Translations under genes and position numbers: made by a program
Shown: positions 1 to 41,082 of the stretch, piece by piece
How the letters are laid out: every line of letters begins with the position of its first letter
Position numbering within the stretch: position 1 is the first letter of the stretch
The notes under the pieces: model-generated
What the model was told of the DNA's origin: nothing
What the model saw: the letters and a program-made list of their open reading frames with translations, nothing else
The model's database searches: none
Assembly: GCA_030603395.1 (NCBI GenBank)
Contig: JAUVXX010000001.1
Span: 29,822 to 93,821 of the forward strand
Source: a bacterium
GTDB taxonomy: Bacteria > Patescibacteriota > Minisyncoccia > Minisyncoccales > CG1-02-41-26
Reading direction: 5' to 3'
DNA: 64,000 nt

Positions 1-334
1 TTATTCTCCCGAACCCTAAAACTTTTTTAGTGAAAGACGGATAATAAAATCTTCTGCCGTTAGTATCCAGCTCTATAATCACCGGGGGAAATTTCTTTCT
101 GATGAAAGAGAGTATTTTAAAAAAATCGGGGTGAATTGTCGGCTCCCCACCGGTTAAAATGATTTTGTCATCAATGAGATTGCCGTCTTTGTCAAAAATT
201 TTAGCAGCAATAATTCTTCTTTTAAGCTTGGTAAAACTGTAATCCTCAAAAGGGTCCCTATCCTGAAAATCAGAAGGATTAGTGCACATTATGCACTTGC
301 TGTTGCATTTATTCCAAAGACAAATAACCGGCAT
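1..334 (-). CDS. Radical SAM protein, N-terminal fragment; the gene continues past the window start
   Basis: Minus-strand ATG at 334. My translation reads MPVICLWNKCNSKCIMCTNP...ILTGGEPTIHPDF, giving a CxxxCxxC (CNSKCIMC) motif and a GGEP SAM-binding motif. There is no in-frame stop before position 1. It is absent from the ORF track because it is not stop-bounded. Confidence 0.55.
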   Translation of the reverse strand, partial: MPVICLWNKCNSKCIMCTNPSDFQDRDPFEDYSFTKLKRRIIAAKIFDKDGNLIDDKIILTGGEPTIHPDFFKILSFIRKKFPPVIIELDTNGRRFYYPSFTKKVLGFGRI

Positions 335-342
335 ATTTTATC

Positions 343-555
343 TTACTGTTCAATACCAAAAATAATCTCTCTTTCATCTTTGAGTTCTCCGATCGTTGCT
401 TCTCCTATGTTGTAGAATTTTGCTTTCTCTTTTAATTCTTGTTGAGCTCGAATTTTCGCCTCTTCTATACCAGAGCCCCTGACATAACCTAATACTTCAT
501 CGTGCTCCTGGCTCTGGTAAATAATAACATAGTTTTTGAGTTGTTTTTCGACCAT
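343..555 (-). CDS. Small hypothetical protein (70 aa) between two rSAM genes
   Basis: The ORF is compact and sits 17 nt upstream of the next rSAM gene on the same strand. It contains no recognisable motif. Confidence 0.35.
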   Translation of the reverse strand: MVEKQLKNYVIIYQSQEHDEVLGYVRGSGIEEAKIRAQQELKEKAKFYNIGEATIGELKDEREIIFGIEQ

Positions 556-571
556 ATTTTTTATTTATTAT

Positions 572-1492
572 TTATTTCATCGGCTTTAATTCTTTGTCTC
601 CATAGTTCTTAAGATAGTCCTTCCAAATTCCCTCGCATTTATCATAGAGTCGGCACCCTTGGCATCTTTTAGTTTTTGCTCGACCAACCACCTTGCGCGA
701 GCCCTCAACATCTCGGTTTTCAAAATCAGGGGCTAAATGTTCAGTGTGGAATATTTCCACTTCTTGTAATTCACTTACCTGGTCTAAATAATCAGTAAAG
801 TAGCAGAGGGGAACATAGCGGATAGCCCAGTGAGAAATTTTGTGCTTTTTGCCAATATCAAGACATTTGTGGATGTAAGAAGCTGCTTCTGAAATTTTTG
901 GAACAAATTTATAGAACCTATCATGGGCTGCCCCGTAAGAAGGGTCAACAAAAATAAATTCTGAATTTCTGATACCTAAATTATAAATAAGTTTTCCAAT
1001 CTGAGCAATGTATTTATAATTCTGTTTAACAATAGTGGTATTGGAGCCGATATTTTTCAACCCGACCTTTCTTACATTTTCTATTCCCTTTTTCAATTGG
1101 TTGAAACTGCCCTTTACTTGAGTCAAGAAATCATGGAGTTGGGCTGTATGGCCGTGAATAGAAAAGACTAGACTGTTTAAGCCAGCCTCCACTATTTTTT
1201 TAGCAAAGTTCCGATAAGAGTACATTCTGCCATTGGTTGACATCATTATTGTCTTGAAATCCTGTTCTTTGGCAAACTTTATCAAACCAACAATATCCGG
1301 TCTAATGCTCATCTCCCCTCCAACCAATTCTAAATAAGTTGTCCCTGAATTTCTGGCCTCAACCATTTCTTTTTTTATTTGTAAAGTTGTTTTTTCGGGG
1401 ATACTGTTTCTTTTATTAATATTAAGACAAAACTGGCAATTGTTATTACAGCGATAACCAGGGATAATAACGGTTTTTTTGATTTTGGGCAT
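572..1492 (-). CDS. Radical SAM enzyme, small CNNNC paralog family, with a C-terminal CxxCx5C Cys motif
   Basis: It has GYRCNNNCQFC (CxxxCxxC), a GGE SAM motif, the conserved core TNGRMYSYRNFAKKI, and a C-terminal CQGCRLYDKCEGIW. Confidence 0.8.
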   Translation of the reverse strand: MPKIKKTVIIPGYRCNNNCQFCLNINKRNSIPEKTTLQIKKEMVEARNSGTTYLELVGGEMSIRPDIVGLIKFAKEQDFKTIMMSTNGRMYSYRNFAKKIVEAGLNSLVFSIHGHTAQLHDFLTQVKGSFNQLKKGIENVRKVGLKNIGSNTTIVKQNYKYIAQIGKLIYNLGIRNSEFIFVDPSYGAAHDRFYKFVPKISEAASYIHKCLDIGKKHKISHWAIRYVPLCYFTDYLDQVSELQEVEIFHTEHLAPDFENRDVEGSRKVVGRAKTKRCQGCRLYDKCEGIWKDYLKNYGDKELKPMK

Positions 1493-1511
1493 AGCAATTA
1501 ACTTTTATTTA

Positions 1512-2372
1512 CTAAAGTTTAAATTCGTCTGTTCCATACAAATCTATATAACCCTTTAATACCCCGTCACATTTGGACTCGTAGGAACAATTTTGGCAAA
1601 GAGGGATTCTTATTTTGTCAGGATTTTTTTCAAGACAGGGAAAGAAATATTTTCGAGCATCTTTGAGAAGAGAGCAAGGTAAAAACTCCACCAATAAGAA
1701 CTTAGGAGAGAGGTTATCTTTATAATCTTTCAAGACATTAACTACATGTTGACCGAGCTCACTCATTCTCATTATAATCTTTTTATTGCGGGAGCGCCTG
1801 GAAAGAGGAGCGGCATTAAGAATATTTATTTCTTTTACCCCTAAACCACTGATTAGGTTTATCATCTTGGGAAGTTCAAGATAGTTTATTTTGTTTAAGA
1901 GCAGATTAACAATTAGGCTAAAACCTTTGTCTTTTAATTCTATAACATTTTTTATTCCTTTAACAGTTTGAAGAAAACTTCCCTTGGCTTGGGTCTGGCG
2001 ATCGTGCATTTGAGGAGTTGCCCCGTTAAGAGAGATAACTATTTGATTAACACCTATCCCCAATATTTTTTTAGCAAAATTTTTATAGCTAAGTAATCGC
2101 CCGTTGGTGGTGAAGCCGACCTGTTTAAAACCCAGTCCTTTGGCAAATCTCAACAGCTCAATAAAATCTTTTCTCAAAGTTGGCTCCCGACCCATAAAAT
2201 TAACAAAATCATAATGGGTTCTGACTTGAGAAATCTCTTTTTTAAGCTCTCCGGTGCTTTTTACCTTTAATCTCTCCATATATTCATCGGCTTCCGAACA
2301 AAAAATACAGTTGTTGTTGCAATTGTAGCCAATATAAATATAGGGACTAACTTTCATAATTTTAATAAACAT
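1512..2372 (-). CDS. Radical SAM enzyme, paralog of 572..1492
   Basis: It has GYNCNNNCIFC, the core TNGRLLSYKNFAKKI, and a C-terminal CQNCSYESKCDG. Confidence 0.8.
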   Translation of the reverse strand: MFIKIMKVSPYIYIGYNCNNNCIFCSEADEYMERLKVKSTGELKKEISQVRTHYDFVNFMGREPTLRKDFIELLRFAKGLGFKQVGFTTNGRLLSYKNFAKKILGIGVNQIVISLNGATPQMHDRQTQAKGSFLQTVKGIKNVIELKDKGFSLIVNLLLNKINYLELPKMINLISGLGVKEINILNAAPLSRRSRNKKIIMRMSELGQHVVNVLKDYKDNLSPKFLLVEFLPCSLLKDARKYFFPCLEKNPDKIRIPLCQNCSYESKCDGVLKGYIDLYGTDEFKL

Positions 2373-3319
2373 TTATGCTTTTGAGCCAAAGCGACAATCT
2401 CCTTTGGGCCGTATAAATTTAGGTAGTCTTGCCATACTCCCCCGCATTCTTTAAAAAACCGGCATCTCTGGCAAATCTCTATCCGTTCTTTATGAATATC
2501 TGAATAGATATTTCCTTTTTCTTTTTCAAATCTCCTCGGTTGGTATCCCACCTGCTCAGCTGTGGTCTTTCTGCCCTCAGCCGTAATGAGAGTGGTGCGG
2601 GAATCATCTCTTAGTTCCGGCTTAAAAAGACAGAGGGGAAAATCAAAAAAGGTAATCAGGTTAAACTTATCTAAAATAGCTTCAAGGTTATTCAAGGTAA
2701 AGGATAAATCATTTATTTTCACCACCAAAGTTTTATAAAAATCTTTGGCATAACCATCGGGAATAAGGTCTAAAATGTTGAAAAACTTAATTTTTAGAGA
2801 AGAGAGGAGCTTCCCTAGCTGGGTGAGCTTCTGGTAATTCAGTCGGGAAACCACCGTATTGACGATAACGTTGGTGTTGGGAAGTTTTTGAACGTTCTTG
2901 ATTCCCTGAATGGTTTGCTGGAAACTTTTTGGGGTGCGAGTAATGGCGTTGTGAAGTTCTGCTCTTGGACCATAAAGAGAAAAATTAATTCGTTTTACTC
3001 CGCTTTTAATAATTTTTTTAGCAAAATCATTATAACTTAGCATCCTCCCGTTGGTGCTTAAGCCAATATCTTGATAACCCAAATCTTCAGCACGCTTTAC
3101 CAACTCTAAAATATCTTCTCTGATGGTCGGCTCACCTCCGGTAAATTCTACTCTTTTGAAGCCCTGCTTTATTCCTCTCTCTAAATCTTTGATTACTTCT
3201 TTGGTGCTTCTGTCATCATATTTCTTGCCCTTTGGCTTGGTGGTACACATAATGCAGTTATTATTGCAAGAAAAACCAAGCATAGCTAAGAATATCCGTC
3301 TTGAATTATTATTCTTCAT
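2354..3319 (-). CDS. Radical SAM enzyme, paralog of 572..1492
   Basis: It has GFSCNNNCIMC, TGGEPT, TNGRMLSYNDFAKKI, and a C-terminal CQRCRFFKECGGVW. Confidence 0.8.
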   Translation of the reverse strand: MKNNNSRRIFLAMLGFSCNNNCIMCTTKPKGKKYDDRSTKEVIKDLERGIKQGFKRVEFTGGEPTIREDILELVKRAEDLGYQDIGLSTNGRMLSYNDFAKKIIKSGVKRINFSLYGPRAELHNAITRTPKSFQQTIQGIKNVQKLPNTNVIVNTVVSRLNYQKLTQLGKLLSSLKIKFFNILDLIPDGYAKDFYKTLVVKINDLSFTLNNLEAILDKFNLITFFDFPLCLFKPELRDDSRTTLITAEGRKTTAEQVGYQPRRFEKEKGNIYSDIHKERIEICQRCRFFKECGGVWQDYLNLYGPKEIVALAQKHKCLLKL

Positions 3320-3324
3320 AAAAA

Positions 3325-4227
3325 TTAACTTTTAACCGGCTTAAATTCCTGCCAGCCAAAAATTTGGGGGTACTCTTTCCAGGGACCCTCGCAAACCCTA
3401 TAATGTTTGCATTTCGGACAGTCAGGACCCTTGGCTTTACCTTCTGTTTTACGATATTTGCCATAATCTTCTATAGACCAAGTGGCATCATAAACTGCTC
3501 CTTCGGGAATAATTTTTTCAGCAATATAATCCTCGTAATCTTTCATAAAACAATAAGGGATGGCTTCCGTCATAACAGATACTCCTGCGTCAATGCCAAT
3601 TTGCAGTCCTTTTTTAACGTAAGGCATAACCCTGGACTTTTGGGGAACAATCTCATCTATTAGTTTCGGACTGGAAAGAATCATTTGATTGATATGCACA
3701 AAAGCAAATTGAAATTGGTTTACTCCCAAATTTACCAAAAGTTTGGCAATCTGGGGAAGGTATTTGTAATTAGGTTTGGTAATTACCGTATTCATCAGAA
3801 TACGTTGACCTAAAGATTTGAGATTTTTTATGCCGGTGGTAGTCTGCTCAAAGCTTCCCGGAACCGTAGTTAAGCTGTCGTGGAGGTAAGCTGTGTGTCC
3901 GTGCAAAGCCAAAGCAAACTCATTAGCCCCTTTTTTAATCAGGGCTTGGCAGAAATCTTTATAAGCAAACATCCGGCCGTTAGTCTGGATTTGAATAACT
4001 TTAAACCCTAAATCTTTTGCATATTGAACGAGTTCCGGCAAATCTTTCCTGATGGTCGGTTCGCCTCCGGTAAAAACAACCCCGTCGTATTTTTTACACG
4101 TCTTCCTTAAAATCTCTTTGATTTGTTTGGTTGTTTTGTCGGAATATTTCTCTCTTTTGTTTCCCTGAACGCAAAACCGACACCGGTTATTGCATTGAAA
4201 TCCCAATTTAATATCAACGCGTTTCAT
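3325..4227 (-). CDS. Radical SAM enzyme, paralog of 572..1492
   Basis: It has GFQCNNRCRFC, TGGEPT, TNGRMFAYKDF, and a C-terminal CPKCKHYRVCEGPW. Confidence 0.8.
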   Translation of the reverse strand: MKRVDIKLGFQCNNRCRFCVQGNKREKYSDKTTKQIKEILRKTCKKYDGVVFTGGEPTIRKDLPELVQYAKDLGFKVIQIQTNGRMFAYKDFCQALIKKGANEFALALHGHTAYLHDSLTTVPGSFEQTTTGIKNLKSLGQRILMNTVITKPNYKYLPQIAKLLVNLGVNQFQFAFVHINQMILSSPKLIDEIVPQKSRVMPYVKKGLQIGIDAGVSVMTEAIPYCFMKDYEDYIAEKIIPEGAVYDATWSIEDYGKYRKTEGKAKGPDCPKCKHYRVCEGPWKEYPQIFGWQEFKPVKS

Positions 4228-4254: not shown

Positions 4255-5352
4255 TTATTTAAATAGACGCCAGCACTGTGGATCTGGCAAAAACTGAGGC
4301 TCCTCCAGGTAGGTATCTTTCCAATAACTATAACTGACGCACTTTGCCCCTCCCCTACATTTATCAAAATAAGGGCAATCCTGACAGCGGATGTTTATGT
4401 TCTCGGGATTTCTTAGTTTTTTAAGCTCCCGGGAATTATAAAATATTTCTTCCAAGGACTGCTTTAGAACATTTCCCACGTAGATTGGCAGCCTTCGGCA
4501 GGGGTAAACATCCCCATTGGGCAGAATAGTCAAAGAAGAATATCCGGCCACGCAAGTGTTAGCCGGATAACTTTCCTGGGCTAAAATTCCGTCTTCGCAG
4601 CCTATTTCTAATCTTAATTTTGCTTTCTGCTCTTTTAATTTTTTCTGCGCTCTTAAAGTATAAAGGTACAGCTCTTTTGTTTCTCGGGGAGATAGCATTA
4701 ATTTTTTCATTTGTTTGCCCCTGCCCAAAGGAATAAATCTTCTTAAGCCCAAGCCATTTACTCCCAGATCTCTGGCTAATTGAATTATCTGGGGAACGTC
4801 CCCTAAATTCTGTCTGGTTATAGTCACGGAAATACTGGTGGGAATTTTGTTTTCAACCAGTAATTTTATCGCTTCTATTATTTTTCTAAAAGTTCCCCTG
4901 CCTCGAATTCCATCATTTTTCTCCTCTGTCCCCTCCAGGCTTACCTGGGCATAATCTATTTTTAGTTTTTTAAGTTTGGCTGTTTTTTCTTTATTGAGCA
5001 GAGTGCCGTTAATAAGAATTCCGTACCTGGTTTTCTTTCTATTTTGAAAACATTTCTCTAAAAATTTAAAGAAATCCGCTCTGACCATTGGCTCACCCCC
5101 GGTAATAGAGATTCTCGAGCTTTCACGGAGAAGCTTCCACTTCCTGACAAGCTTGACGTAGTCATTGAGAGTTTTGAAAAGCTGGCTCAAGGAAAGTTCA
5201 TTTTTAAGAAATTTCGGGTCAAAATAGCAGTGGCGGCAAGTCAAATTACACCTTTCGGTAATATGCCATTGGAGATGAAAAGAGGAAGGTTTGTATTCAG
5301 CAAACATTGTTTCTTCTCTTGAAATAATAACATCTCTCAATCTTTTTAACAA
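4255..5352 (-). CDS. Radical SAM enzyme with C-terminal SPASM domain
   Basis: It has CNLTCRHCYF and GGEP motifs. The C-terminus carries a Cys cluster CVAGY...CRRLP...CQDCPYFDKCRGGAKC, typical of SPASM auxiliary 4Fe-4S domains. Confidence 0.8.
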   Translation of the reverse strand: MLKRLRDVIISREETMFAEYKPSSFHLQWHITERCNLTCRHCYFDPKFLKNELSLSQLFKTLNDYVKLVRKWKLLRESSRISITGGEPMVRADFFKFLEKCFQNRKKTRYGILINGTLLNKEKTAKLKKLKIDYAQVSLEGTEEKNDGIRGRGTFRKIIEAIKLLVENKIPTSISVTITRQNLGDVPQIIQLARDLGVNGLGLRRFIPLGRGKQMKKLMLSPRETKELYLYTLRAQKKLKEQKAKLRLEIGCEDGILAQESYPANTCVAGYSSLTILPNGDVYPCRRLPIYVGNVLKQSLEEIFYNSRELKKLRNPENINIRCQDCPYFDKCRGGAKCVSYSYWKDTYLEEPQFLPDPQCWRLFK

Positions 5353-5436
5353 CTGTTATTGACAAATTTTTCTGAAGATGTATAATGAACTAAAAATAAA
5401 AAGCTCTTTAATAATTAGAGCGAAAGGAATAGCAAT

Positions 5437-6976: not shown

Positions 6977-8458
6977 ATGATAACTTATTTCAGAGATATC
7001 CAGACAAAAAAACATAAAAAGATTGCCGCAGATTATCTTGAAAATAAATATTTTGTTTTTGAGATAGCGAAGACAAAATTTCTAATTACAACGAGGCATC
7101 GCTCTTGGGTTATTCTTTCTAAAAAAGAATATAAACTTCTTCTCAATCATAGGGTTCATCAGAACCCCAAGCTCTTTAAGATATTATCCGGACTCAATGT
7201 TATCTATATTAAAGATAACATATCAGAGGTAATTCAACAATACAAAAATAAATACCATTACCTAAGTCGTCCTCCGACGCTGAATATTATGGTGCCAACC
7301 TTGCGCTGTAATTTAAAATGTGATTACTGCCATTCTCTTTCCGGTCCAAATGTTAGAAAAAAAGATATGACTGAATCTTTAGTTAAAAAGACGATTGATT
7401 TTATTTTTACCATACCTCATCAGTCCAAAAAAGTTCATATAGAGTTTCAGGGAGGAGAACCGCTCTTAAGATGGGATATTGTAAAGTACAGTATAAAATA
7501 CGCAAAAGAAAAATCAAAAAAGATGAAATTTCGGCCTCCTTCTTTTTCTCTGACCACGAATCTCGCATTAATGAACGAGAAAATAGCAGAAGACATAGCC
7601 CGCTATAATTCAAATACAACCTCCTTTAAGATTAATATTTCTCTCGATGGCCCGGAAAAAATTCATGATTCTCAAAGGAAACATTGCGACGGAGAGGGAA
7701 GCTACAAAAAAGTTATTCACTGGCTTGATATTTTGAAGAAGAAATATAAAATCTCTCCCTCGGTGATATCGGTAATAACTCAAAACAGCTTAAATCACGA
7801 AAAAGAAATTATTGACGAATTAATAAAACATAATTTAAGGAACTTCAAATTTTTACCCGTTAGTTTAACGGGTAGACTCTACAATAAACATCAAGAAAAA
7901 AAAGATAATCTTTCTATTTCTCCTGAAGAATTTTTTAATTTTTGGAAGAACTCATTAGAATATATTTTAAAGTTAAATAAAAAAGGAATTAAAGTTAAAG
8001 AACAAATTACCCTTTTTCTTTTATCAAATATCTTGTCTTTAAGGGCAGATTATATGTGCGCAAGAAAACCCTGTGGAGCAGGCATTTCTCAGTTAGAGTT
8101 TGGTTGCGACGGAACAATTCATGCCTGCGACGGAGGAAAAAACATAAAAGAGTTGGAACTGGGCAATGTAAATACTCACCGCTACGAAGATATAACAATG
8201 TCAAAAATCGTTTCTCAATTAAGGTCCATCCGAAGCGAAAACTTACCCATCTGCTCTGATTGTCCCTGGGGCCCATATTGCGGGTATTGCGTCGCTCGAG
8301 GCATTAACCAACACGGCCAACTCAGACCCAAAATACCAGAGGACTATGACTGCCAATTATACAGCCGGATGATTCCTTATCTGTTTAGGGGATTTTTAGG
8401 TAAGGAACGAGCTCAAATTTTTTCTAAATGGGTTAACAATTTACTTGAGGGTTTTTGA
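6977..8458 (+). CDS. Radical SAM/SPASM enzyme with an N-terminal extension of about 110 aa (possible peptide-recognition domain)
   Basis: It has CNLKCDYCHS and GGEP motifs, and a C-terminal CGAGISQLEFGCDG...CSDCPWGPYCGYC, which matches an anaerobic-sulfatase-maturase-like SPASM domain. It is a paralog of 17972..19393. Confidence 0.8.
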   Translation: MITYFRDIQTKKHKKIAADYLENKYFVFEIAKTKFLITTRHRSWVILSKKEYKLLLNHRVHQNPKLFKILSGLNVIYIKDNISEVIQQYKNKYHYLSRPPTLNIMVPTLRCNLKCDYCHSLSGPNVRKKDMTESLVKKTIDFIFTIPHQSKKVHIEFQGGEPLLRWDIVKYSIKYAKEKSKKMKFRPPSFSLTTNLALMNEKIAEDIARYNSNTTSFKINISLDGPEKIHDSQRKHCDGEGSYKKVIHWLDILKKKYKISPSVISVITQNSLNHEKEIIDELIKHNLRNFKFLPVSLTGRLYNKHQEKKDNLSISPEEFFNFWKNSLEYILKLNKKGIKVKEQITLFLLSNILSLRADYMCARKPCGAGISQLEFGCDGTIHACDGGKNIKELELGNVNTHRYEDITMSKIVSQLRSIRSENLPICSDCPWGPYCGYCVARGINQHGQLRPKIPEDYDCQLYSRMIPYLFRGFLGKERAQIFSKWVNNLLEGF

Positions 8459-9395
8459 TTTGTAAGAATTTATAAACTAAGCAGCTGCCGTGACACTGTT
8501 TTCTCTTTTTAAAGAGACAATCTTTACATTCTGGGAATAAATCTATCTCCCACCTCAATTTGTCAAGGAGTTTTTTATAATAATCAATTATTTCTTTCTC
8601 GCTTTTGAAAGTATCTAAGGGAGGCCCCTCAATACCTAAGGCAATGCAGGGCAATAGTGTTTTGGCGGGTGTTATTGCATAACTACTTTTTCCGGCTCCG
8701 CAAATACCTCGCAGCCCGATATTTTTGATTAAAAATGCCCTTTCTTTTTCGGAAAAAAAACATAGAGGAAACGGTTCAGCAAGTTGACATTTGATATTTT
8801 GTCTTAACAAATCTTTTGTCAATTGTAAAATATATCTGGAAAAACCTTTTAAGTTCTCTTTTTTAATGTGCTCATTTTGATTAAAACTTGAAGGAAAAAC
8901 GGGAGTAAACTCTACATAATGAATGTCTAATTTTTTGCAGGCACCTATAATATAATTATAGGAAACATCAGGAGAAATAATATTAAACCTAAAGCCGAGG
9001 TTTTTGGTAATTTTTCTTATGTTTTTTAAATTAGAATATAGAGTTTCTAACTCTTGGGGGGAATATTCTGAGGGAGGGTTGAAATTAACCAAGAAGGAAA
9101 ATATAGCCGGAGATTCAATATTGATTTTTTTTATATCAAAGATTCCGTTGGTATAAAGCAGTATTTTCAAACCATACTTTTCAGCCAATTTTAAGGCAGA
9201 ATCTATTTTACTAAATAAAGTGGGCTCTCCTCCGTTAAAGCCAATCACCTCTTTGATTCCTTGCTTATTGAACCATTTGAAAACAGTTTCAAGTTTCTCT
9301 AAAGAAATTTCTCGGGGCCATTTTTTTAAAAATCCTTTGGCAAAACAATAACGACAATTTCTATTACAAAAATAACTAAGATTAATCTGTCTCAT
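8433..9395 (-). CDS. Radical SAM/SPASM enzyme
   Basis: It has CNRNCRYCFAKG, NGGEPT, and a C-terminal CGAGKSS...CIALG...CKDCLF...CHGSC. Its 3' end overlaps that of the convergent gene 6977..8458 by 26 nt. Confidence 0.75.
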   Translation of the reverse strand: MRQINLSYFCNRNCRYCFAKGFLKKWPREISLEKLETVFKWFNKQGIKEVIGFNGGEPTLFSKIDSALKLAEKYGLKILLYTNGIFDIKKINIESPAIFSFLVNFNPPSEYSPQELETLYSNLKNIRKITKNLGFRFNIISPDVSYNYIIGACKKLDIHYVEFTPVFPSSFNQNEHIKKENLKGFSRYILQLTKDLLRQNIKCQLAEPFPLCFFSEKERAFLIKNIGLRGICGAGKSSYAITPAKTLLPCIALGIEGPPLDTFKSEKEIIDYYKKLLDKLRWEIDLFPECKDCLFKKRKQCHGSCLVYKFLQIKNPQVNC

Positions 9396-9425: not shown

Positions 9426-11093
9426 TCAAAATGGAGTATAATATCCTTTAGCTTTTAAGATGAAGGAGATTTCTTGGTCAGAATTTATAATTTCTTTTTT
9501 TGCTGGAAATTCCAGGTTAATAAATTGTCCGGGGATTAATCCCACTCTTCCATCTTTTAAGTGCTTCTCATTAATATTCTTATCTTCCGAATGACTAAGA
9601 CTGGATAGCTTAATAGTTTCTTGTTTAATGTCAGGATTAGTCAATGGACTAGCATTTACCAGACCAATAAAGCTTAGATTGTGAGAGTTAGTCCATTTTA
9701 ATTTCAAAGATAATGGACTCTTTCTTTCTTTGGTACATTGAGAAATATCAACTAAGCCCGAGGAAAACTTCTCTCTTGGGTGGACGATGCTAAGCAACCC
9801 TTTTTTATTATTTCCGACATATACATCAACATATATATTAATACTTTTACATAAGTGGACTGCCGCAAAGGCATCTTCTGGCTTTATTACTTCCCCAGCA
9901 ACAGCTGTTCCCAGAGAAGCTATAGCTATTTTCTTTAGGGAGTCGGTCCATTTTCTTTCCGAGGAAAATATTCTTTCTAGGTTTCTGGTTGCTTCGGCAA
10001 TTCTTTGGTAATTTGCCCTAAGGTTAGCCCTGAAGACTAAGTGGCAATTTTCTAAATTTTGCACATTATCGAATTTCACATCTAAGACATCTTCTTTTTC
10101 TCCACCAAAAAATATTTCATCGTTCAAAGTAGATAACTTTTTTGTCCAGTCCCTTCCTTTTTTATTTCTAATTGAAGACGGGAAAATTAGATTTTTATAG
10201 GCAACTATTTTATTGTTTTCTATCCCGATACTAAATTTCTTTGGATGAATAATTTTAATAAGTTCAAGATTATAGAGATGAGAATGTTCTCTTTCAAACT
10301 CCATTACTCGCAAAAGATATTTCTTACTCTTTTGACAGGGCTTTACTTCTAATTTGTATAGTTCTTTAACAATAATGTTCTCCCTTAATATATTTTCAGA
10401 CGCCGGCAAAATATTATTATCAATAACAAATTTTTTGCCGTTCCAAACCATAATAAATGGGCAGCCACAACTACTGTGAGAAACGTGAGAACTGTGTGAG
10501 CTATGACTGCTGTGGCTGCCATGAGCACAACTACTATGGGAGCCGTGTGAACAGTGAGATTGGTGGGAACTGTGAGAGCTGTGTGAGGTGTGGGAACCGT
10601 GAGAAGAGTGGGAAGAGTGAGAGCTGTGAGAAGAGTGAGAACTATGTGAGGAGTGAGAACCGTGGGAACCGTGTGAGGAGTGAGAGGAGTGGGAACCATG
10701 AGAACCGTGAGAGGAGTGTGAGCCGTGGGAAGAGTGAGAACTGTGGGAGGAGTGGGAACTGTGAGAGCTGTGTGAGCCGTGGGAACCGTGTGAGGAGTGA
10801 GAGGAGTGGGAACCATGAGAACCGTGAGATGAATGGGAGCCGTGGGAGGAGTGAGAACCGTGGGAACTGTGAGATGAGTGAGAGCTATGGGAAGTGTGGG
10901 AGCTATGCGAAGAATGTGAGGTATGAGAGCACTCCCAATCAGCTTGAGCTTCACGAGCTACCATTGAGCCAGCAACAGCTGCTCCTAAGATAAAGAGCAT
11001 TGTTCCTGCTTTAACAATGTCTTTCTTGTTGACGTTGCCCTCTTCAGAGGTCAAGAAAGTCTTAATGTTCTTTTTTATTCGTGGAAAATTCAT
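9426..11093 (-). CDS. His-Xaa-Ser repeat protein (HxsA-like precursor) fused to a C-terminal domain of about 320 aa with unknown function
   Basis: The leader MNFPRIKKNIKTFLTSEEGNVNKKDIVKAGTMLFILGAAVAGSMVAREAQADW contains a hydrophobic TM/signal-like segment. It is followed by about 60 consecutive H-x-S triplets (SHSSHSSHGSH...), then CGCPF and a non-repetitive domain. The leader is nearly identical to that of 11887..12321. Confidence 0.75.
   Translation of the reverse strand: MNFPRIKKNIKTFLTSEEGNVNKKDIVKAGTMLFILGAAVAGSMVAREAQADWECSHTSHSSHSSHTSHSSHSSHSSHGSHSSHGSHSSHGSHGSHSSHSSHGSHGSHSSHSSHSSHSSHSSHGSHSSHGSHGSHSSHSSHGSHGSHSSHSSHSSHSSHSSHSSHGSHTSHSSHSSHQSHCSHGSHSSCAHGSHSSHSSHSSHVSHSSCGCPFIMVWNGKKFVIDNNILPASENILRENIIVKELYKLEVKPCQKSKKYLLRVMEFEREHSHLYNLELIKIIHPKKFSIGIENNKIVAYKNLIFPSSIRNKKGRDWTKKLSTLNDEIFFGGEKEDVLDVKFDNVQNLENCHLVFRANLRANYQRIAEATRNLERIFSSERKWTDSLKKIAIASLGTAVAGEVIKPEDAFAAVHLCKSINIYVDVYVGNNKKGLLSIVHPREKFSSGLVDISQCTKERKSPLSLKLKWTNSHNLSFIGLVNASPLTNPDIKQETIKLSSLSHSEDKNINEKHLKDGRVGLIPGQFINLEFPAKKEIINSDQEISFILKAKGYYTPF
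10390..10930 (-). repeat. Tandem 9-nt repeats that encode the His-Xaa-Ser units
   Basis: The units are of the type gtgagaaccgtgggaacc and repeat with 9-nt periodicity across roughly 540 nt. ORFs called on other frames or on the opposite strand in this stretch are artefacts of the repeat. Confidence 0.8.
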
Positions 11094-11896
11094 ATATTTG
11101 ACTGCTCAGCCCCTTTAAGGCAGCTCTGGTAAAGAAACTCTCCTCTTCCCTCTTCATCTTTGTAGGGAATCTCTTCACATAGCGAGGGGTCTTTGGTAAA
11201 CTCAGCTATCTGGGGAAGATAGATCTCTGAACATTCAACCTCACTGCGATATTTTACACATTCATTAATATCTAAGATGCCTCGGCAAAGAATTTGAGCC
11301 CCTCTTTTATAGCTTATTTTGTCACAAAGAGTTATGTCTTTTTTCAAAATAGCTAATAAATTATAGTAACTATCTTTACACTTTTGGATTTCTATTTCCG
11401 AAAGATTTTGGCATTCCTCTTCGTCTTCTCTGATTAGTGCTTTGCAAAGAATCTTTTCTTGTTGAGGAAGTTCTTCTTTTTCACAAAGAGTTTCGTCTTT
11501 TTTAAAAACGGCTTGGCAGAAAAATTCTTTCTCTCCCGCTTTTTGGCAATAATCTATGTTATTTTCCTTAAGTGCTCGGAAGGAATAAAAAAAATTTTCG
11601 CATTGCTCTTTCTCTTCTTGACTTAATGCCATGTCGCAAAAATAAACATTATGAACACCAATACAGTGAAAGGAAGATTTTTCTCCCAGGGTCCAATTAA
11701 TATCAATATTCCCCGCTAGATCTTCTAAATTTTGACATCGCTGGAAATTTTCTTCAAGAAGAGCCAATTGCTTTGCCCTCTCCCATCTTGGAATAAAAAT
11801 TAAAGTTCCCAAAATTATTACTGACAATAAGATAATTATAAGAATGATTTTAGTTTTTTTAGACATTTTTGCATTTTCAATTTTTACTAACACCAT
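11090..11896 (-). CDS. Membrane-anchored protein with repeated Cys pairs
   Basis: It has an N-terminal TM segment (KIILIIILLSVIILGTLIFI) followed by 7 or 8 repeated C-x(8-13)-C units, for example CQKAGEKEFFC, CEKEELPQQEKILC, CQNLSEIEIQKC, and CDKISYKRGAQILC. It lies between the two Hxs-like precursor genes and overlaps both by 4 to 10 nt. Confidence 0.5.
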   Translation of the reverse strand: MVLVKIENAKMSKKTKIILIIILLSVIILGTLIFIPRWERAKQLALLEENFQRCQNLEDLAGNIDINWTLGEKSSFHCIGVHNVYFCDMALSQEEKEQCENFFYSFRALKENNIDYCQKAGEKEFFCQAVFKKDETLCEKEELPQQEKILCKALIREDEEECQNLSEIEIQKCKDSYYNLLAILKKDITLCDKISYKRGAQILCRGILDINECVKYRSEVECSEIYLPQIAEFTKDPSLCEEIPYKDEEGRGEFLYQSCLKGAEQSNI

Positions 11897-12321
11897 GACC
11901 CGGAACTATGTGAAGAATGGGAGCTGTGGGAGGAATGGGAGCAGTGGGACTGATGAGAACCATGGCAAGAGCCGTGAGAGACATGGGAAGAGTGAGAAGA
12001 GTGAGAGGAGTGAGAACCGTGAGAGTTATGAGAGCTATGACCAGAAGCGTGAGAACCGTGGGAAGAGTGAGAGGAGTGAGAGGAGTGAGAGCCGTGGGAA
12101 GAGTGAGAGCTGTGTGAAGAATGCGAAGAATGAGAACCATGGGAAGTGTGCTCACATTGAGGCCATTGAGCTTGAACTTCTCTCACAGCCATTGAACCAG
12201 CAACAGCTGCTCCCAAGATAAGGAGCATTGTTCCTGCTCGGACAATGTCTTTCTTATTGACATTTCCTTCTTCAGAAGTCAGAAAGAATTTAATGTCTTT
12301 TTTTATTTTTGGAAAATTCAC
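11887..12321 (-). CDS. His-Xaa-Ser repeat precursor peptide (HxsA-like), short 144-aa form
   Basis: The leader MNFPKIKKDIKFFLTSEEGNVNKKDIVRAGTMLLILGAAVAGSMAVREVQAQW is conserved with 9426..11093. It is followed by about 30 H-x-S triplets and ends in SGSWC. Nucleotides 11890..12156 have a 9-nt repeat structure. Confidence 0.75.
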   Translation of the reverse strand: MNFPKIKKDIKFFLTSEEGNVNKKDIVRAGTMLLILGAAVAGSMAVREVQAQWPQCEHTSHGSHSSHSSHSSHSSHGSHSSHSSHSSHGSHASGHSSHNSHGSHSSHSSHSSHVSHGSCHGSHQSHCSHSSHSSHSSHSSGSWC

Positions 12322-12874: not shown

Positions 12875-13795
12875 CTACCTGAAATAAATGCCTAAGTTTC
12901 TATTTTCTAAAGCAAAATAACTTATCTTTGCTTCAACATCTTTTATAATTTTAAATGATTCTTTGAGCCATAATTTCTGTTTGGGAAAGTTTTGTTTAAG
13001 TATATTTAACCTTTTAGGAGCAACGCTTTCTTTTAACCGAAACCAGAGCTTTGTTGAGGAAATATCAGAGCTCGGAGAGATACGGCAAAGCATTCCTGTT
13101 TCTTTAACTAGCATGTTTCTTAAAGCTGAAAGAACCGGTTGATAGACTTTTCCTACCTCTTTAGGATTTGGCAGGCCTTTACAGATTAAAGGATAAATCT
13201 TAAGAAAACATTCTCCCCTTGGCAAAAAATCAATCCCCACTGTATCAAAGTCCTTATTCTTAAATGTTTTTTCTAATTTATCTGCTTTAAGGTTTAAAAT
13301 ACAGCTCAGCTTTTTTATAAGCTCTTGAACCTTTTTTCTTTGAAGCTTCAATCCATCGGGGCTGGTAAAATATATCTTTACTCTTTCTATTTTGCTTTGG
13401 GCTAAATCTATGCCAAACTGCACCATCCAGGAATGACTTTTGGCTATTGATAATATGGGTTTAATTTTGTCATTGAATTTGCAGCTTGAATTGTTTAAAG
13501 AAACAAAGATTTTAGCGATACAATCTATTCGTTTTTTCCTTAATTTTTCTTTCTGAGCTAAACTTAAGAATTCTTTCAGAAAATTAAGATGGAGAATCCT
13601 TATTTTTTTCTGACCAGAAACCAAAGAGAACTCAAAACCATTGTAGAGATTTGATTTTAACTCACTGCCCCTTTCTAACTCGTCTATAATTTCAAAAATC
13701 AGCTTATTGGGATTAAATCCCCATCTTTGAGACAACAATCCGATTAATTGTTTTGCTTGAGAATTGTTCATTTTATCCGTAAAAATTTTACTCAA
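12875..13795 (-). CDS. Hypothetical protein of about 300 aa, paralog of 14716..15576, placed directly after an rSAM gene
   Basis: It shares GFEFSL and GFSLKL motifs and a conserved C-terminus (ENRNLGIYFR versus ENDNLILYIRF) with 14716..15576. It overlaps the upstream rSAM gene by 8 nt. Confidence 0.5.
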   Translation of the reverse strand: MSKIFTDKMNNSQAKQLIGLLSQRWGFNPNKLIFEIIDELERGSELKSNLYNGFEFSLVSGQKKIRILHLNFLKEFLSLAQKEKLRKKRIDCIAKIFVSLNNSSCKFNDKIKPILSIAKSHSWMVQFGIDLAQSKIERVKIYFTSPDGLKLQRKKVQELIKKLSCILNLKADKLEKTFKNKDFDTVGIDFLPRGECFLKIYPLICKGLPNPKEVGKVYQPVLSALRNMLVKETGMLCRISPSSDISSTKLWFRLKESVAPKRLNILKQNFPKQKLWLKESFKIIKDVEAKISYFALENRNLGIYFR

Positions 13796-14759
13796 AAATA
13801 TAAGATTTGGTTTTTTTTATATATTCCTGGAAGAGGCTTCGGCTTTTAGCGTTTTCCTTTAAAATTTGGGCTATTTTTTGGGAGGTATTATTGCGCAACT
13901 TGATTATATTTTTATCAAAATGAATGTCAGGGTAAAAATCAAAACACGACGAAGCTCTTTTGCCCGAAACGCTTATTTCAACATTTTTCCTTAAATCCTC
14001 TTTTTTGTTCAGAATTCGGCTTACGGAATTCAAAAAGATAAATCTTTTGTTTTTTATTTCTCTTACAATATAGTCAGAGATTTTGTTTAAGCAAGAAAGG
14101 AAATCTTTTCTTTCTTTTTCTTCCCAGGTTACTGTCTGAATTGGCTCAATGTTTATGCTCTTAAATCCCGTTTTTATTAAATAAATAAAATTTTCATGCA
14201 TTTTTTTAACCTCTGAAGGATGAACGGCCATCAGGGCACAAACATTTTCTTCCTTCAGGTTTTTAAAGACCGCTGGCAACTTTTTTATTATCTGAGAAAA
14301 TGAACTTCTGCCATTTTTAAATACCCGGAATCTATCGTGAGTTTCTTTTTTCCCGTCAATACTTACGGCTAATTTGACATTATATTTCTGAAAAAACTTG
14401 AGGTGTTCTTTTCTAATTAAAGTGCCGTTAGTGGCTACAGATACAGCTAATTGCTTATTTTTTTGCCTGACTAAAGATTGAGCAAAAATGATTATCTTTT
14501 TTAGTAAATCAAAATAAAGCAAGGGTTCTCCGCCATATAAAAGAAGCTGTTTTTCTTTTCCCGGAGATAAAATAAGATTTCTTACTGCTTGCTTGGCTTT
14601 TTCAAAGGGTATAATCTCATTGGTTTTTTTAATAAAACAATACCGACACCTCATATTGCAGCGAGTGCCAACAAAAAGCCACGTCTTTTTAATTTCCCTA
14701 TCTAGGCTCATCTTTTTAAAAACGGATGTAGAGAATAAGATTGTCATTTTCTGCATCAA
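13788..14759 (-). CDS. Radical SAM enzyme without a SPASM-type Cys cluster
   Basis: It has CNMRCRYCF, YGGEP, and ATNGTLIRKEH...SIDGKKETHDRFRVFKN, which is paralogous to the core of 16980..17987. Confidence 0.75.
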   Translation of the reverse strand: MMQKMTILFSTSVFKKMSLDREIKKTWLFVGTRCNMRCRYCFIKKTNEIIPFEKAKQAVRNLILSPGKEKQLLLYGGEPLLYFDLLKKIIIFAQSLVRQKNKQLAVSVATNGTLIRKEHLKFFQKYNVKLAVSIDGKKETHDRFRVFKNGRSSFSQIIKKLPAVFKNLKEENVCALMAVHPSEVKKMHENFIYLIKTGFKSINIEPIQTVTWEEKERKDFLSCLNKISDYIVREIKNKRFIFLNSVSRILNKKEDLRKNVEISVSGKRASSCFDFYPDIHFDKNIIKLRNNTSQKIAQILKENAKSRSLFQEYIKKTKSYIFE

Positions 14760-15580: not shown

Positions 15581-16975
15581 TCACAAAGGAATATATTTTA
15601 ATTCTTCATCCCCAATAATCTTTTTTTTATTTTTTACCGGTTTTATTTTCTTTTGGCATTTTTTAACTATTTCCTCAGAATAAAAATATTTAGAAAAAAC
15701 CAAATAAGCGCCGAAATTAGGAACTTTAGATTGAAGATGAGTCGGTCTTGCGATTATTTTTCCTCTTTTTACCAAATATTCAATTTCTTCTTTCAAAACT
15801 TTGTCTATGTCTTGACCAAAAAGCTGGTAAATCCTTTTTTTGGGAAGAAGATTGTACCTGAGAGAATTTATAACGTACCATTTTATCTCTTCAATTTTAT
15901 TTTTATATCTGCATTGAAGATAAACCGGGCTTTCATTCTGCCGAATGCCTCTTTCGTATTTTTCTAAATCGGGAAAGTTCATATAATTTCCCCAACCGGA
16001 AATATGCGACATAGCCGCCATTCCCAATCCCAAGAAAGGACTGTTATATTCAACCGTGTCAGCTATCTGAATATTTCGGGCTTCATTGCTTTTACCTATG
16101 TCTTCAAACTGTAAAAACTTATAGGAAGAGTCAAGAAGCATTTTGCGGCCCAAAGCGTTCATTTCCTCTCTCTTTTGCATTTCTTCCCGCGACAGGACTT
16201 TTCCCTGCTGGGAGAAGGAAGTAGCCGGATTGGGAAAGAAGGGATTAACGTGAACCACATCCGGTGAAAGCTTAATTACTTTCTTCATTGTCTCTTTAAA
16301 GCTTTTGAGCGTTTGGCCGGGCAAGCCGCACATTATATCAAAGTTTATGTATTTAATGCCGGCTCGCCGCGCCCGCTGATAAGCTTTGTAAACCGATTTC
16401 TCAGACGATAAACGTCCCCACTTTTTCATTAATTTATCATCAAAGCTCTGTACTCCCATATTAAGCCGGCTGACTTTATATCTCTTTAATAATTTCAATT
16501 TTTTCCAAGAAAGAGTACTGGGATTTGCTTCAAAAACCACCTGAATGCATTTCTTAAAATCAAAATGGTTATAGATAAGTTCAAAAAATTTTTCAAGCTG
16601 AGTCGGGCTTAAAAGAGAGGGGGTGCCCCCGCCAACATAAAGTGAACGAAAAGAGACGGATTTAAAAATCTTTGAATACAATTTCACTTCCCTGGCAAGC
16701 AGGTTTAAGTAATTGTCTATTTGGCTGTGATTTTTAAGCTTTTGAGCCGGGAACCGGCAAAAAATACACCTTGAAGCACAGAAAGGAAGGTGAACGTACA
16801 TTCCCACCTTATCTACGCCTCTATTTATTGTTCTTTTCCAGGCAGTTTTTATCTCTTCCTGGTTGGCTTTATGCCAAACAAAAATTGGGGGGTAATAAAA
16901 GGGGAAACCAACAAAGTCAGTCTGGGATATTTTTTCAGTGATTGCTCGGAAGAGCCAATCTTTATCTTTAATCAT
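15581..16975 (-). CDS. HemN/HemW-family radical SAM enzyme (coproporphyrinogen-III-oxidase-like; possible class C rSAM methyltransferase)
   Basis: It has YVHLPFCASRCIFCRF (the YxHxPFCxxxCxFCxF signature), GGGTPS, and MGVQSF motifs, which are typical of the HemN family. Confidence 0.8.
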   Translation of the reverse strand: MIKDKDWLFRAITEKISQTDFVGFPFYYPPIFVWHKANQEEIKTAWKRTINRGVDKVGMYVHLPFCASRCIFCRFPAQKLKNHSQIDNYLNLLAREVKLYSKIFKSVSFRSLYVGGGTPSLLSPTQLEKFFELIYNHFDFKKCIQVVFEANPSTLSWKKLKLLKRYKVSRLNMGVQSFDDKLMKKWGRLSSEKSVYKAYQRARRAGIKYINFDIMCGLPGQTLKSFKETMKKVIKLSPDVVHVNPFFPNPATSFSQQGKVLSREEMQKREEMNALGRKMLLDSSYKFLQFEDIGKSNEARNIQIADTVEYNSPFLGLGMAAMSHISGWGNYMNFPDLEKYERGIRQNESPVYLQCRYKNKIEEIKWYVINSLRYNLLPKKRIYQLFGQDIDKVLKEEIEYLVKRGKIIARPTHLQSKVPNFGAYLVFSKYFYSEEIVKKCQKKIKPVKNKKKIIGDEELKYIPL

Positions 16976-16979
16976 AGCC

Positions 16980-17987
16980 TTAATCTGCCCTGGTTATCTT
17001 TAAAAAATTAGATATGTAAATTTTTGAGATTTCACAGAAGGTCTGGAAATGTTTTTTAAAATCTTTTTTGTTCTCTTGAGACCAAAGATATAAACCAATT
17101 GGACAGAAGCAGTATTCCTGACAAGGACATTTTGAGCATTTGCTGTCTGTTATTTTAAGAATCCCCTTTTTTGCCTTTCTTAACAAGTTTTCTCTTTTTG
17201 CTTTATCAATTCCTCCTCCTCTGCCAACTATGTATTTTTTTCTCCTTTTATCAAAAAAAGAAAATACTTTATCGCAAAGATAAAAATTTCCATCAGGACC
17301 TAAATTCAGCTGCTGGCAGCAGAAATTCTCGCTGTTTTTCTCAAGGCCTTTTGTTATGCTAAACTCGCTAAAAGTTTTTTTAAGGATATTGAGCTGATTT
17401 TTTGACCATAAACCGTAAACCTCTGGATAAAAATCTATTAAGCGAAATCCGTTTTCAACAAAGAACTTAATGTTTTCAGTAAGGTGGTTTACTGTTGAGG
17501 GAGTAAAGATCAGAGAGATTTTAATTTTTTCTTTATTTAAATTTTTGATATTTTTCCAGACCGTTTTGAAGACCGAACGTTCTTTATCATTTTTAAATAC
17601 TCTGTTGACGTCATTTACATCTTGCTTACCGTCTAAACTTATTGAGAGGCCGACGTTGTTCTCGGCTAAAAATTCACTTCTTTCTTTGTTGAGCAAGGTG
17701 CCGTTGCTGGAGAGCACAATAAAAGCCCTCTTTTTTTCGTTCCTTTTCAAATATTCTATCAATTCTTTTAATTCCCCCCAATAAAGCAAGGGTTCTCCGC
17801 CGGTAAAATTAATGGTCGGCTCTTTTATTGAGTGTTTCAAAAAAAAGCTGATTCCCCTTTTTAATTCGGGAACATTGGGGATAATCTTTTTCAAATTCTC
17901 TTTGTCAATAAAACAATAGCTGCAATCAAGATTGCAGCCACCTCCAAGAAAAATAGATAAAGAATGGTATTTTATTTGCTGAGCCAT
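16980..17987 (-). CDS. Radical SAM enzyme with a C-terminal Cys-rich (SPASM-like) region
   Basis: It has GGGCNLDCSYCF, TGGEP, and a C-terminal CSKCPCQEYCFCP. Confidence 0.75.
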   Translation of the reverse strand: MAQQIKYHSLSIFLGGGCNLDCSYCFIDKENLKKIIPNVPELKRGISFFLKHSIKEPTINFTGGEPLLYWGELKELIEYLKRNEKKRAFIVLSSNGTLLNKERSEFLAENNVGLSISLDGKQDVNDVNRVFKNDKERSVFKTVWKNIKNLNKEKIKISLIFTPSTVNHLTENIKFFVENGFRLIDFYPEVYGLWSKNQLNILKKTFSEFSITKGLEKNSENFCCQQLNLGPDGNFYLCDKVFSFFDKRRKKYIVGRGGGIDKAKRENLLRKAKKGILKITDSKCSKCPCQEYCFCPIGLYLWSQENKKDFKKHFQTFCEISKIYISNFLKITRAD

Positions 17988-19596: not shown

Positions 19597-20028
19597 TTAT
19601 TTCTTTTCCCCATACTTTTCCTCCCAGGGCACGGCAATGCCCAGAGGATCACTCTCAATATGTTCTTCTTCTGATGTTTCTTCCGAGGGAAAAGCCGAGA
19701 ACAATGCTTTTTCCACAATGGTTTCTCTTATCTTCTTGGTGTTTTTAGCGATGGCCGTTCTTAAAACATAATCTAAAAGTTCATTTTTAAACTCTCCGGC
19801 GAGCTCTTCCAATTTTTTAGAGTCAAGCTTTCGCTTTCCTTCTATAAAAACTTTAATTTCTTTCTTGGGGTCGCCATCTAAAAACAAATATGCTCGGTCA
19901 ACAAAAACATAACAAGCTCCATAGATGGCTTCCAATGGATAAATTTTGGGGTTAAGTGAAATCACCAGCTGGCCATTTTGTTTTTGAGTTTTTATGGTCT
20001 TGATATTCCTTCTATTTTTTGAAGACAT
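19597..20028 (-). CDS. Hypothetical protein (143 aa)
   Basis: It is a compact ORF inside the operon with no recognisable motif. Confidence 0.4.
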   Translation of the reverse strand: MSSKNRRNIKTIKTQKQNGQLVISLNPKIYPLEAIYGACYVFVDRAYLFLDGDPKKEIKVFIEGKRKLDSKKLEELAGEFKNELLDYVLRTAIAKNTKKIRETIVEKALFSAFPSEETSEEEHIESDPLGIAVPWEEKYGEKK

Positions 20029-38902: not shown

Positions 38903-38905
38903 TTT

Positions 38906-40054: not shown

Positions 40055-40102
40055 TTTTCAGTTGATTTTACGAACTTGTCTCCTGTCCTTTGTCTCCTGT
40101 CT

Positions 40103-41011: not shown

Positions 41012-41082
41012 TTCTCTATTATATAAGAAAAATCATCCAATATAAACTGGATGACTTCTTGTCTCTTGTCTCCTGTCTCTTG

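Follow-up and report, generated by a model that had tools for sequence, protein, structure and literature searches.

The question raised by the left end of the stretch analysed here, 64,000 nt of contig JAUVXX010000001.1 (assembly GCA_030603395.1, positions 29,822 to 93,821; hereafter the window) from an ultra-small candidate phyla radiation (CPR)/Parcubacteria bacterium close to Nealsonbacteria, is what a tandem array of radical S-adenosylmethionine (SAM) enzymes acts on. The array includes five HxsC-like paralogues, designated P0 to P4, and was interpreted, with a probability of about 0.65, as the set of HxsC-type maturases belonging to an expanded His-Xaa-Ser (HXS-like) system. This assignment is supported by homology, gene order, conservation, gene fusions and purifying selection, and a substrate, an auxiliary cluster, a division of labour and a biological role are proposed below. 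The array consists of the following genes (window coordinates).

2..334, minus strand: P0, HxsC-like radical SAM enzyme, N-terminal 111 amino acids (aa), with the C-terminus beyond the left edge of the window
343..555, minus strand: o70, conserved 70-aa protein with no family match, recognised from the list of open reading frames (ORFs) and its conservation
572..1492, minus strand: P1, HxsC-like radical SAM enzyme, 306 aa (NF038332, 137 bits; TIGR03977, 75 bits; PF04055)
1512..2372, minus strand: P2, HxsC-like radical SAM enzyme, 286 aa, with GRE instead of GGE and a shorter C-terminal insert
2354..3319, minus strand: P3, HxsC-like radical SAM enzyme, 321 aa (NF038332, 149 bits; TIGR03977, 122 bits)
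3325..4227, minus strand: P4, HxsC-like radical SAM enzyme, 300 aa (NF038332, 179 bits)
4255..5352, minus strand: SPASM5, radical SAM/SPASM enzyme, 365 aa (PF04055, and PF13186 SPASM with E 1.2e-12)

In an earlier note on this DNA, the array had been described as six consecutive radical SAM genes on one strand that run off the left edge. The consecutive ORFs and the run-off were both confirmed, but with o70 the genes number seven, and because the array is transcribed from the minus strand, the fragment at 1-334 belongs to the last gene and represents its N-terminus. Transcription runs through SPASM5, P4, P3, P2, P1, o70 and P0 in that order, with spacers of 27, 5, -19 (the overlap of P3 and P2), 19, 16 and 8 nt, respectively. 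It had also been stated that no precursor genes lie between the enzymes. Nothing intervenes between P1 and P4, but the gap between P1 and P0 is filled by o70 (343-555), which does not look like a repeat precursor. Given the gene spacing, it is reasonable to infer that SPASM5 to P0 form a single transcription unit, with SPASM5 probably its first gene. A perfect sigma-70-like site at 5359-5386 is on the opposite strand and was assigned to a divergent gene for a secreted protein, and the terminators found within the array (4 versus 6.2 expected) were no better than chance. SPASM5 was the only gene of the array to give a Pfam SPASM match, P1 to P4 giving none; its orthologues lie directly upstream of P4 in the related loci L016 (72% identity) and L010, and directly after HxsB in L003 (58%).

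The left flank beyond the window was deduced from the close relative L021, in which P1 is 92% identical to that of the window and which belongs to the same metagenome-assembled genome (MAG) as locus L004 (P4 94% identical). P0 of L021 has 312 aa, carries the C-terminal motif CKNCLYRKYC and is 84% identical to P0 of the window. It is followed downstream by genes for a 406-aa polytopic membrane protein, an Ig-domain protein, RNase Y and HU. Therefore, the array most likely stops at P0 and comprises five HxsC-like genes in all.

The paralogues had been called closely related, and recent tandem amplification or assembly duplication of a single radical SAM gene, without functional diversification, would be consistent with their tandem same-strand arrangement. 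However, P1 to P4 share only 32-37% aa identity in pairwise BLASTP comparisons (E 1e-40 to 1e-66) and P0 shares 27-31% with them, while DNA-level matches, apart from the 19-nt overlap of P2 and P3, were few, short and weak (the longest 122 nt at 70%). Neither near-identity at the DNA level nor frameshifts, the signs expected of amplification, were seen, and all ORFs are intact. Each paralogue has its own orthologues at 70-93% identity and in the same order in independent assemblies, and in the phylogeny that had been asked for, each of P0 to P4 formed its own clade with its orthologues, with neighbour-joining (NJ) support of 94-100 of 100 bootstrap replicates (P1 100, P2 96, P3 94). As judged against orthologues in two other assemblies, the ratio of nonsynonymous to synonymous substitution rates (dN/dS) was 0.03-0.12 for every paralogue and 0.10-0.19 for o70. 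Amplification of this kind is thus refuted for practical purposes, and P0 to P4 are anciently diverged and individually conserved under purifying selection. A grouping of P0 with canonical HxsC, which appeared in a first NJ tree, was rejected, as its bootstrap support was 21/100.

The best NCBIfam match of P1 to P4 was in every case HxsC4 (NF038332; 130-179 bits, E 1e-38 to 1e-53), with the alignments of P1 and P3 spanning nearly the whole model, and HxsC (TIGR03977) was the second match for P2, P3 and P4, though not for P1. On the HxsC model, P1, P2, P3 and P4 scored 74.7, 90.8, 122.5 and 110.5 bits, respectively, all below the cut-off of 267.9. P0 scores highest of the paralogues on this model, as measured on its orthologues (312-313 aa; 84% identical in L021 and 77% in L016), which reached 165-172 bits, also below 267.9, and matched only HxsC and HxsC4 at E<1e-15. 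The best HxsC4 score among ten other representatives of the clade was 163 bits against a cut-off of 500; P1 to P4 are relatives of HxsC4, not members. Conversely, when canonical HxsC proteins from an Aeromonas plasmid and a Calothrix plasmid were used as queries, P3, P4, P2, P1 and P0 were among the best matches in the window (20-33% identity), with SPASM5 scoring comparably to the paralogues against Aeromonas HxsC.

All of P1 to P4 exceeded the Radical_SAM gathering score (PF04055; 70-85 bits versus 29.5). The CNNNC pattern and other motifs to which the earlier note had drawn attention were recovered, the former being part of the canonical radical SAM motif CX3CX2C, and P1 to P4 share C-N-N-[NR]-C-x-x-C, TNGR[ML]xxY and a C-terminal CX2CX5C-x-G-x-[WL]-x-x-Y. 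P0 deviates in the core (TNGRRFYYPSF), its translation including CNSKCIMC, TGGEPT and TNGRRFYY. Its C-terminal CX2CX5C, which had been ascribed to all of the first five genes, lies outside the window and is visible only in the orthologue from L021. The SAM-binding motif is GGE in P0, P1, P3 and P4, and GRE in P2. Among 83 HxsC-like sequences collected, CX3CX2C was present in 82, the C-terminal CX2CX5C in 81, and an extra cysteine 15-90 residues upstream in 79. The C-termini of canonical HxsC (CDDCASKAVC-CGFF or CDACTVKDKC-GGFF) include the same CX2CX5C motif. Thus both cysteine motifs of HxsC were found in the paralogues, while the adjacency to hxsB in the order hxsD-B-C-A was not.

The seven-cysteine SPASM pattern with CX2CX5CX3C (PF13186/TIGR04085) was not found in P1 to P4, which have only CX2CX5C and one upstream cysteine. 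Three invariant cysteines and one nearly invariant cysteine beyond the SAM cluster nevertheless make the partial SPASM or twitch domain suggested in the earlier note a reasonable reading, although no Pfam SPASM match was obtained. An AlphaFold2 (AF2) model of P4, with a mean predicted local distance difference test score (pLDDT) of 91.8, shows a partial TIM barrel, after which come a C-terminal beta-hairpin and a helix with the candidate cysteine ligands. Its best structural neighbours were BlsE, GDGT-MAS, SuiB, SkfB, viperins and MoaA (Foldseek E 2e-14 for BlsE 7vob, 1.5e-11 for SkfB and 7e-10 for MoaA). The predicted fold of P4 is thus like that of the single-auxiliary-cluster, twitch-type and related enzymes BlsE, MoaA, SkfB, SuiB and viperin, at a sequence identity of 12-21%, but the cysteine spacing of the paralogues is that of the latter half of a SPASM motif lacking its terminal CX3C, unlike that in solved twitch-type structures. 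From the motif and the model, it is a sound inference that the C-terminal Cys...CX2CX5C binds one auxiliary Fe-S cluster, as in partial SPASM or twitch domains. A PADLOC 2023 scan, which has no Hxs model, returned only generic viperin-type radical SAM matches.

The similarity to BlsE, a cytosylglucuronate decarboxylase that was the top match both by structure and by sequence in the PDB, raises the possibility that the array acts on a non-HxS substrate, such as a glycan or nucleotide sugar meant for the Ser-rich protein or for the cell surface, the cysteine-rich protein cys268 (described below) or o70, and that its location together with hxs genes reflects a shared envelope pathway and not a common substrate. 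This explanation was considered unlikely, as the HxsC4 matches (E 1e-38 to 1e-53) surpass those to BlsE (E 1e-14 to 1e-21) by a wide margin, and the C-terminal cysteine motif is common specifically to the paralogues and HxsC.

The link to H-x-S repeat proteins, which had been proposed from the sequence, was upheld by the content of the adjacent region: besides having HxsC4 and HxsC as their best families, the paralogues lie within 20 kb of genes for HxsD, HxsB and two HxsA-type proteins, the scores of which are all above the respective cut-offs.

9426..11093, minus strand: long HxsA-type protein, 555 aa (NF038313 HxsA4, 79 bits; cut-off 55)
11887..12321, minus strand: short HxsA-type protein, 144 aa, with the same leader and 27 HxS repeats (NF038313, 60.3 bits; cut-off 55)
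17972..19393, minus strand: HxsB, full member of the family, 473 aa (TIGR03978, 531.8 bits; cut-off 370)
19597..20028, minus strand: HxsD, 143 aa (TIGR03976, 71.9 bits; cut-off 50)

HxsB of the window is 40% identical to the annotated hxsB product of the Aeromonas plasmid. In both HxsA-type proteins, the HxS tract is flanked by cysteines and preceded by a leader and a hydrophobic helix, and the leader, P-x-[IL]-K-K-x-[IL]-[KR]-x-F-L-x-[SE]-E-E-G, is conserved in eight loci. The long protein is composed of this conserved leader, a transmembrane helix, 50 in-register HxS repeats (residues 57-208; middle residue S in 30, G in 14, T in 3, and others) and a C-terminal domain of ~345 aa. This domain, within the last 347 aa of the protein (9426-10469), is conserved in L003 (59%) and L005 (46%) and gave no Pfam or PDB sequence match; it stands in place of the peptidoglycan-binding domain of canonical HxsA. 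The four-gene arrangement in the order D-B-C-A was not found. Instead, the cluster has ~22 genes, and 12 of them, all between positions 1 and 20409, encode radical SAM enzymes: five HxsC-like, one SPASM, HxsB, an HxsB-like enzyme encoded on the plus strand, two PapB-like enzymes without a detected SPASM region, one HemN-like and one unclassified. Twelve such genes in 20 kb represent an unusually high density for a genome that is probably smaller than 1 Mb.

Related loci were collected with P4 as the query, which biases the apparent universality of P4 among them. A word-based search gave 2391 homologues of P4 at E<=1e-10, the few named ones being labelled Nealsonbacteria and one Woesearchaeota. 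The order P4-P3-P2-P1-o70-P0, complete or up to the end of the contig, was observed in eight loci (L001, L002, L004, L005, L007, L010, L016 and L021) with orthologue identities of 44-94%, except that o70 was not detected in L010. A truncated 141-aa P0 in L002 (L002:10804-11229) was considered as a pseudogene and rejected, since a scaffold gap, present as a run of N, accounts for the truncation. HxsB is encoded less than 10 kb from the P4 orthologue in ten loci (L003, L005, L006, L008, L011, L012, L013, L014, L017 and L018). With a hidden Markov model (HMM) of the HxsC-like family, on which HxsC-like domains score at least ~190 bits over the whole model and other radical SAM proteins at most 135 bits over the core only, 3-9 HxsC-like domains were counted per well-covered locus, including loci in Omnitrophota MAGs and in the complete 661-kb Nealsonbacteria genome CP061210.1.

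In several of these loci, the domains are fused. Three HxsC-like domains occur in a single 1055-aa ORF in L007 (L007:856-4023) and two in L009 and L010, with P3 a fused partner in all three loci. A PapB-like radical SAM domain, homologous to r323 of the window (13788-14759), is joined N-terminally to an HxsC-like domain in L006, L013, L015 and L017, the partner being P4 in L006, L013 and L017. Searching a profile of P1 to P4 against 1.84 billion representative proteins gave 2764 clusters at E<=1e-30, and many of the top matches, of up to 1406 aa, had 2-5 matched stretches. The top matches from the metagenome library included individual ORFs of 900-1400 aa that contain 3-5 radical SAM domains (L007:856-4023; L013:11828-14605; P0132-P0135). 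Such fusions are evidence of the Rosetta-stone type and suggest that the separate enzymes of the window act together.

Several observations weigh against a role of P0 to P4 as HxsC-type maturases. No paralogue reaches a curated cut-off (267.9 bits for HxsC, 500 for HxsC4), and all lack the ~110-aa N-terminal region of canonical HxsC (401 and 400 aa in the Aeromonas and Calothrix proteins, respectively), the first cysteine of CX3CX2C being at residues 10-18 in P0 to P4 versus ~117-122 in canonical HxsC. The best structural match of P4, as noted above, is a sugar-nucleotide enzyme. In the window, the array is 5-8 kb from the HxsA genes and 13 kb past HxsB, and it is separated from the HxsA genes by a plus-strand gene for a secreted protein and the plus-strand HxsB-like gene, with a minus-strand gene for a 211-aa protein between these two. 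Because plus-strand genes intervene, the array and the HxsA genes do not form one operon. An ORF with at least four consecutive HxS units was not found in the contig stretches of L004, L007-L010 and L013-L017, several of which are short, while L008 does have the leader. Glycosyltransferase genes (PMT_2 and GT2) are interleaved in the array of L003. Finally, every CPR member is known here from its genes alone.

Some of these points would favour a non-HxS substrate, namely the array forming its own transcription unit, the related loci without an HxS-repeat ORF in the DNA examined, and the glycosyltransferase genes in L003, to which the methyltransferase genes near the array of L001 can be added. 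However, no glycosyltransferase is encoded in the cluster of the window, and HxsB is nearby in the ten related loci named above. Overall, the case for a non-HxS substrate is weaker than the link to HxsC.

If P0 to P4 do act on HxsA-type proteins, the reason for there being five of them has to be considered. One explanation is that each paralogue is dedicated to modifying one position, or one subset, of the H-x-S repeats, so that the number of enzymes mirrors the repetitiveness of the substrate. The candidate substrates are indeed highly repetitive (50 and 27 units), and as the middle residue varies, the paralogues could read different contexts. However, most of the units are the same (HSS or HGS), so that little is left by which positions could be told apart, and the number of HxsC-like domains is not matched to the number of repeats: 12 repeats versus 8-9 domains in L018, 7 versus 7 in L011, 6 versus 3 in L012, and 50 and 27 versus 5 in the window. 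The failure of domain number to scale with repeat number argues against the idea, already raised in the earlier note, of one enzyme per position. Single radical SAM maturases such as PapB are also known to process several repeated motifs iteratively; in the case of freyrasin, the precursor of which repeats a short motif many times, one enzyme handles all of the repeats. The window resembles that system in its repeated-motif precursors and in encoding PapB-like enzymes, but differs in keeping together several diverged paralogues that are often fused elsewhere. Allocation of the paralogues to individual positions was hence judged improbable.

The HxsC-type maturase reading leads to the following model. 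P0 to P4 would each cleave SAM at the CX3CX2C cluster and carry an auxiliary Fe-S cluster at the C-terminal Cys...CX2CX5C, and they probably act with HxsB, HxsD and further radical SAM enzymes encoded in the same 20 kb. The two HxsA4-type proteins, in which a cytoplasmic leader and a membrane helix are combined with 27 or 50 H-x-S repeats, are the likely substrates. Given that the orthogroups are old, each conserved in its own right and in some genomes fused, they probably differ in the step that they perform or the sequence context that they recognise. P0 to P4 would most likely associate physically into a multi-enzyme machine, with a separate step or context falling to each orthogroup, and they are probably not distributed as one enzyme per repeat position. 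By analogy with the HXS system of Escherichia coli, HxsA would, once modified, be processed and presented at the cell envelope.

In E. coli HXS, recognised as an antiphage defence only in 2026, mutations in the active sites of HxsB and HxsC abolish both HxsA processing and defence, HxsC binds HxsD in pull-downs, a +8 Da modification of unresolved chemistry was mapped by mass spectrometry to an SHRSS motif, the last repeat, and mature HxsA acts in the periplasm, where it blocks entry of phage DNA (PMC13128918). In a survey of HXS systems, 99.7% were in Pseudomonadota and >99.8% consisted of four genes (Li et al., Nat Commun 2026, PMC13128918). Like the canonical system HxsD-HxsB-HxsC-HxsA (TIGR03976-03979), the window encodes HxsD, HxsB, an in-register H-x-S protein and enzymes of the HxsC lineage with CX3CX2C and CX2CX5C. 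It differs in having five HxsC-like paralogues, which lack the ~110-aa extension and score below the cut-off, in place of one HxsC; 12 radical SAM genes in place of 2; and 27-50 repeats in place of 5. Moreover, the leader of HxsA in the window is of another type (HxsA4), no peptidoglycan-binding domain was recognised in this protein, and the slot after HxsB is occupied by the PapB-like r335 rather than HxsC. The host belongs to the CPR, whereas canonical HXS is nearly confined to Pseudomonadota, and an antiphage function is known for the canonical system only. With respect to the NCBIfam variants HxsA3 (NF038309), HxsA4 (NF038313) and HxsC4 (NF038332), the HxsA proteins of the window pass the HxsA4 model, whereas P1 to P4 remain at 130-179 bits against the HxsC4 cut-off of 500.

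The HXS system and its NCBIfam variants are already known; what is new is the multi-paralogue, expanded form, which is conserved and widespread. In the searchable literature, no description was found of the HxsA3, HxsA4 and HxsC4 variant models or of multi-paralogue or fused HxsC arrays, and none of Hxs-type clusters in CPR, Nealsonbacteria or Omnitrophota. At least 17 related loci beside the window show that a much larger form of HXS occurs in CPR and Omnitrophota, with up to 12 radical SAM genes, and the substrates in the window have ten times the repeats of canonical HXS. The fused and separate versions together provide a naturally dissected set of enzymes for working out the function of HxsC-type proteins. 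That all of these genes are retained, and under strong purifying selection, in genomes of ~0.6-0.7 Mb points to an important role at the envelope of these episymbiotic bacteria. A more far-reaching proposal is that the HxsC-like orthogroups, which are separate in the window and elsewhere joined into polypeptides of 2-5 domains, constitute a processive radical SAM assembly line, in which each module performs a different reaction on His and Ser side chains and the 27-50-unit H-x-S tract becomes a heavily cross-linked, non-proteinogenic envelope polymer of ultra-small bacteria (CPR and Omnitrophota) that controls the passage of DNA (phage defence or DNA uptake) or attachment to the host. This was regarded as possible but doubtful; were it correct, the polymer would be a lineage-wide trait that takes up ~3% of a 660-kb genome.

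Two further proteins are associated with the array. In seven related loci (L001, L002, L003, L005, L007, L016 and L021), o70 is conserved and always encoded directly upstream of P0. Comparison with NCBIfam and Pfam gave no family match, and o70 was rejected as a homologue of HxsD (hhalign probability 0.4%). Its AF2 model, of low confidence (pLDDT 68.7), is beta-beta-alpha-beta, and the best Foldseek matches of this model were to ribosomal proteins (E 0.16). It may be conjectured that o70 plays the part of HxsD beside P0 despite having no detectable homology to it. The second is an A24-like polytopic membrane protein of ~400 aa with a weak match to Peptidase_A24 (E 0.015) and the motifs D-x-x-x-G-K-I-R-N and G-D-A-K-L. 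Its gene would be expected beyond the left edge of the window, as in relatives (L021:2701-3921, L016:16744-18051 and L003:19812-20900), and 12 related loci, among them L021, were found to have it, in most cases directly after the last radical SAM gene. This protein is, as a conjecture, a candidate leader peptidase for HxsA, the leader of which ends in the conserved S-E-E-G.

The remaining features named in the cluster are as follows.

6977..8458, plus strand: HxsB-like radical SAM/SPASM enzyme, 493 aa (TIGR03978, 302 bits, below the cut-off of 370)
8433..9395, minus strand: r320, radical SAM enzyme, 320 aa (PF04055), with a 63%-identical orthologue beside the long HxsA in L003
11090..11896, minus strand: cys268, membrane-anchored protein of 268 aa with 16 cysteines, between the two HxsA genes and overlapping both by a few bases
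12327-12791: u154, 154 aa, beside the short HxsA
13788..14759, minus strand: r323, PapB/HxsB-like radical SAM enzyme, the matches of which end inside the radical SAM core, with no SPASM region detected
15581..16975, minus strand: HemN/HemW-like radical SAM enzyme, 464 aa
16980..17987, minus strand: r335, PapB-like radical SAM enzyme, occupying the place directly after HxsB that belongs to HxsC in canonical systems
20035..20409, minus strand: u124, small protein of 124 aa at the upstream border of the cluster, beside HxsD

The HxsB-like gene and r320 are convergent, with a 26-nt overlap of their 3' ends (8433-8458). Two small envelope proteins are encoded between the HxsB-like gene and the operon of the array. 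No family match was found for cys268, which could be a further radical SAM substrate or a disulfide-rich protein of the envelope. r335 is not HxsC-like, scoring 60 bits on the HxsC-like HMM versus 298-414 for P1 to P4. The proteins u124 and u154 are paralogues (42% identity, E 5e-31) with no family match, and their homologues follow the A24-like gene in L005 and L007. Two other proteins, encoded at 12875-13795 (306 aa) and 14716-15576 (286 aa), each directly downstream of a radical SAM gene, share 24% identity from end to end, a weak similarity (E 0.057), and may be a pair of accessory or recognition proteins.

Beyond u124, the genes for ClpP and trigger factor set the right boundary of the cluster at ~20,400. 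Further to the right, the window contains a giant ORF of 3944 aa (43946-55780) with Big_9 and cadherin-like domains and, nearby, genes for proteins with cohesin, dockerin and WxL-interacting domains (37616-42039). The region from 37616 to 55780 resembles the cell-surface adhesion loci that are typical of episymbiotic CPR bacteria.

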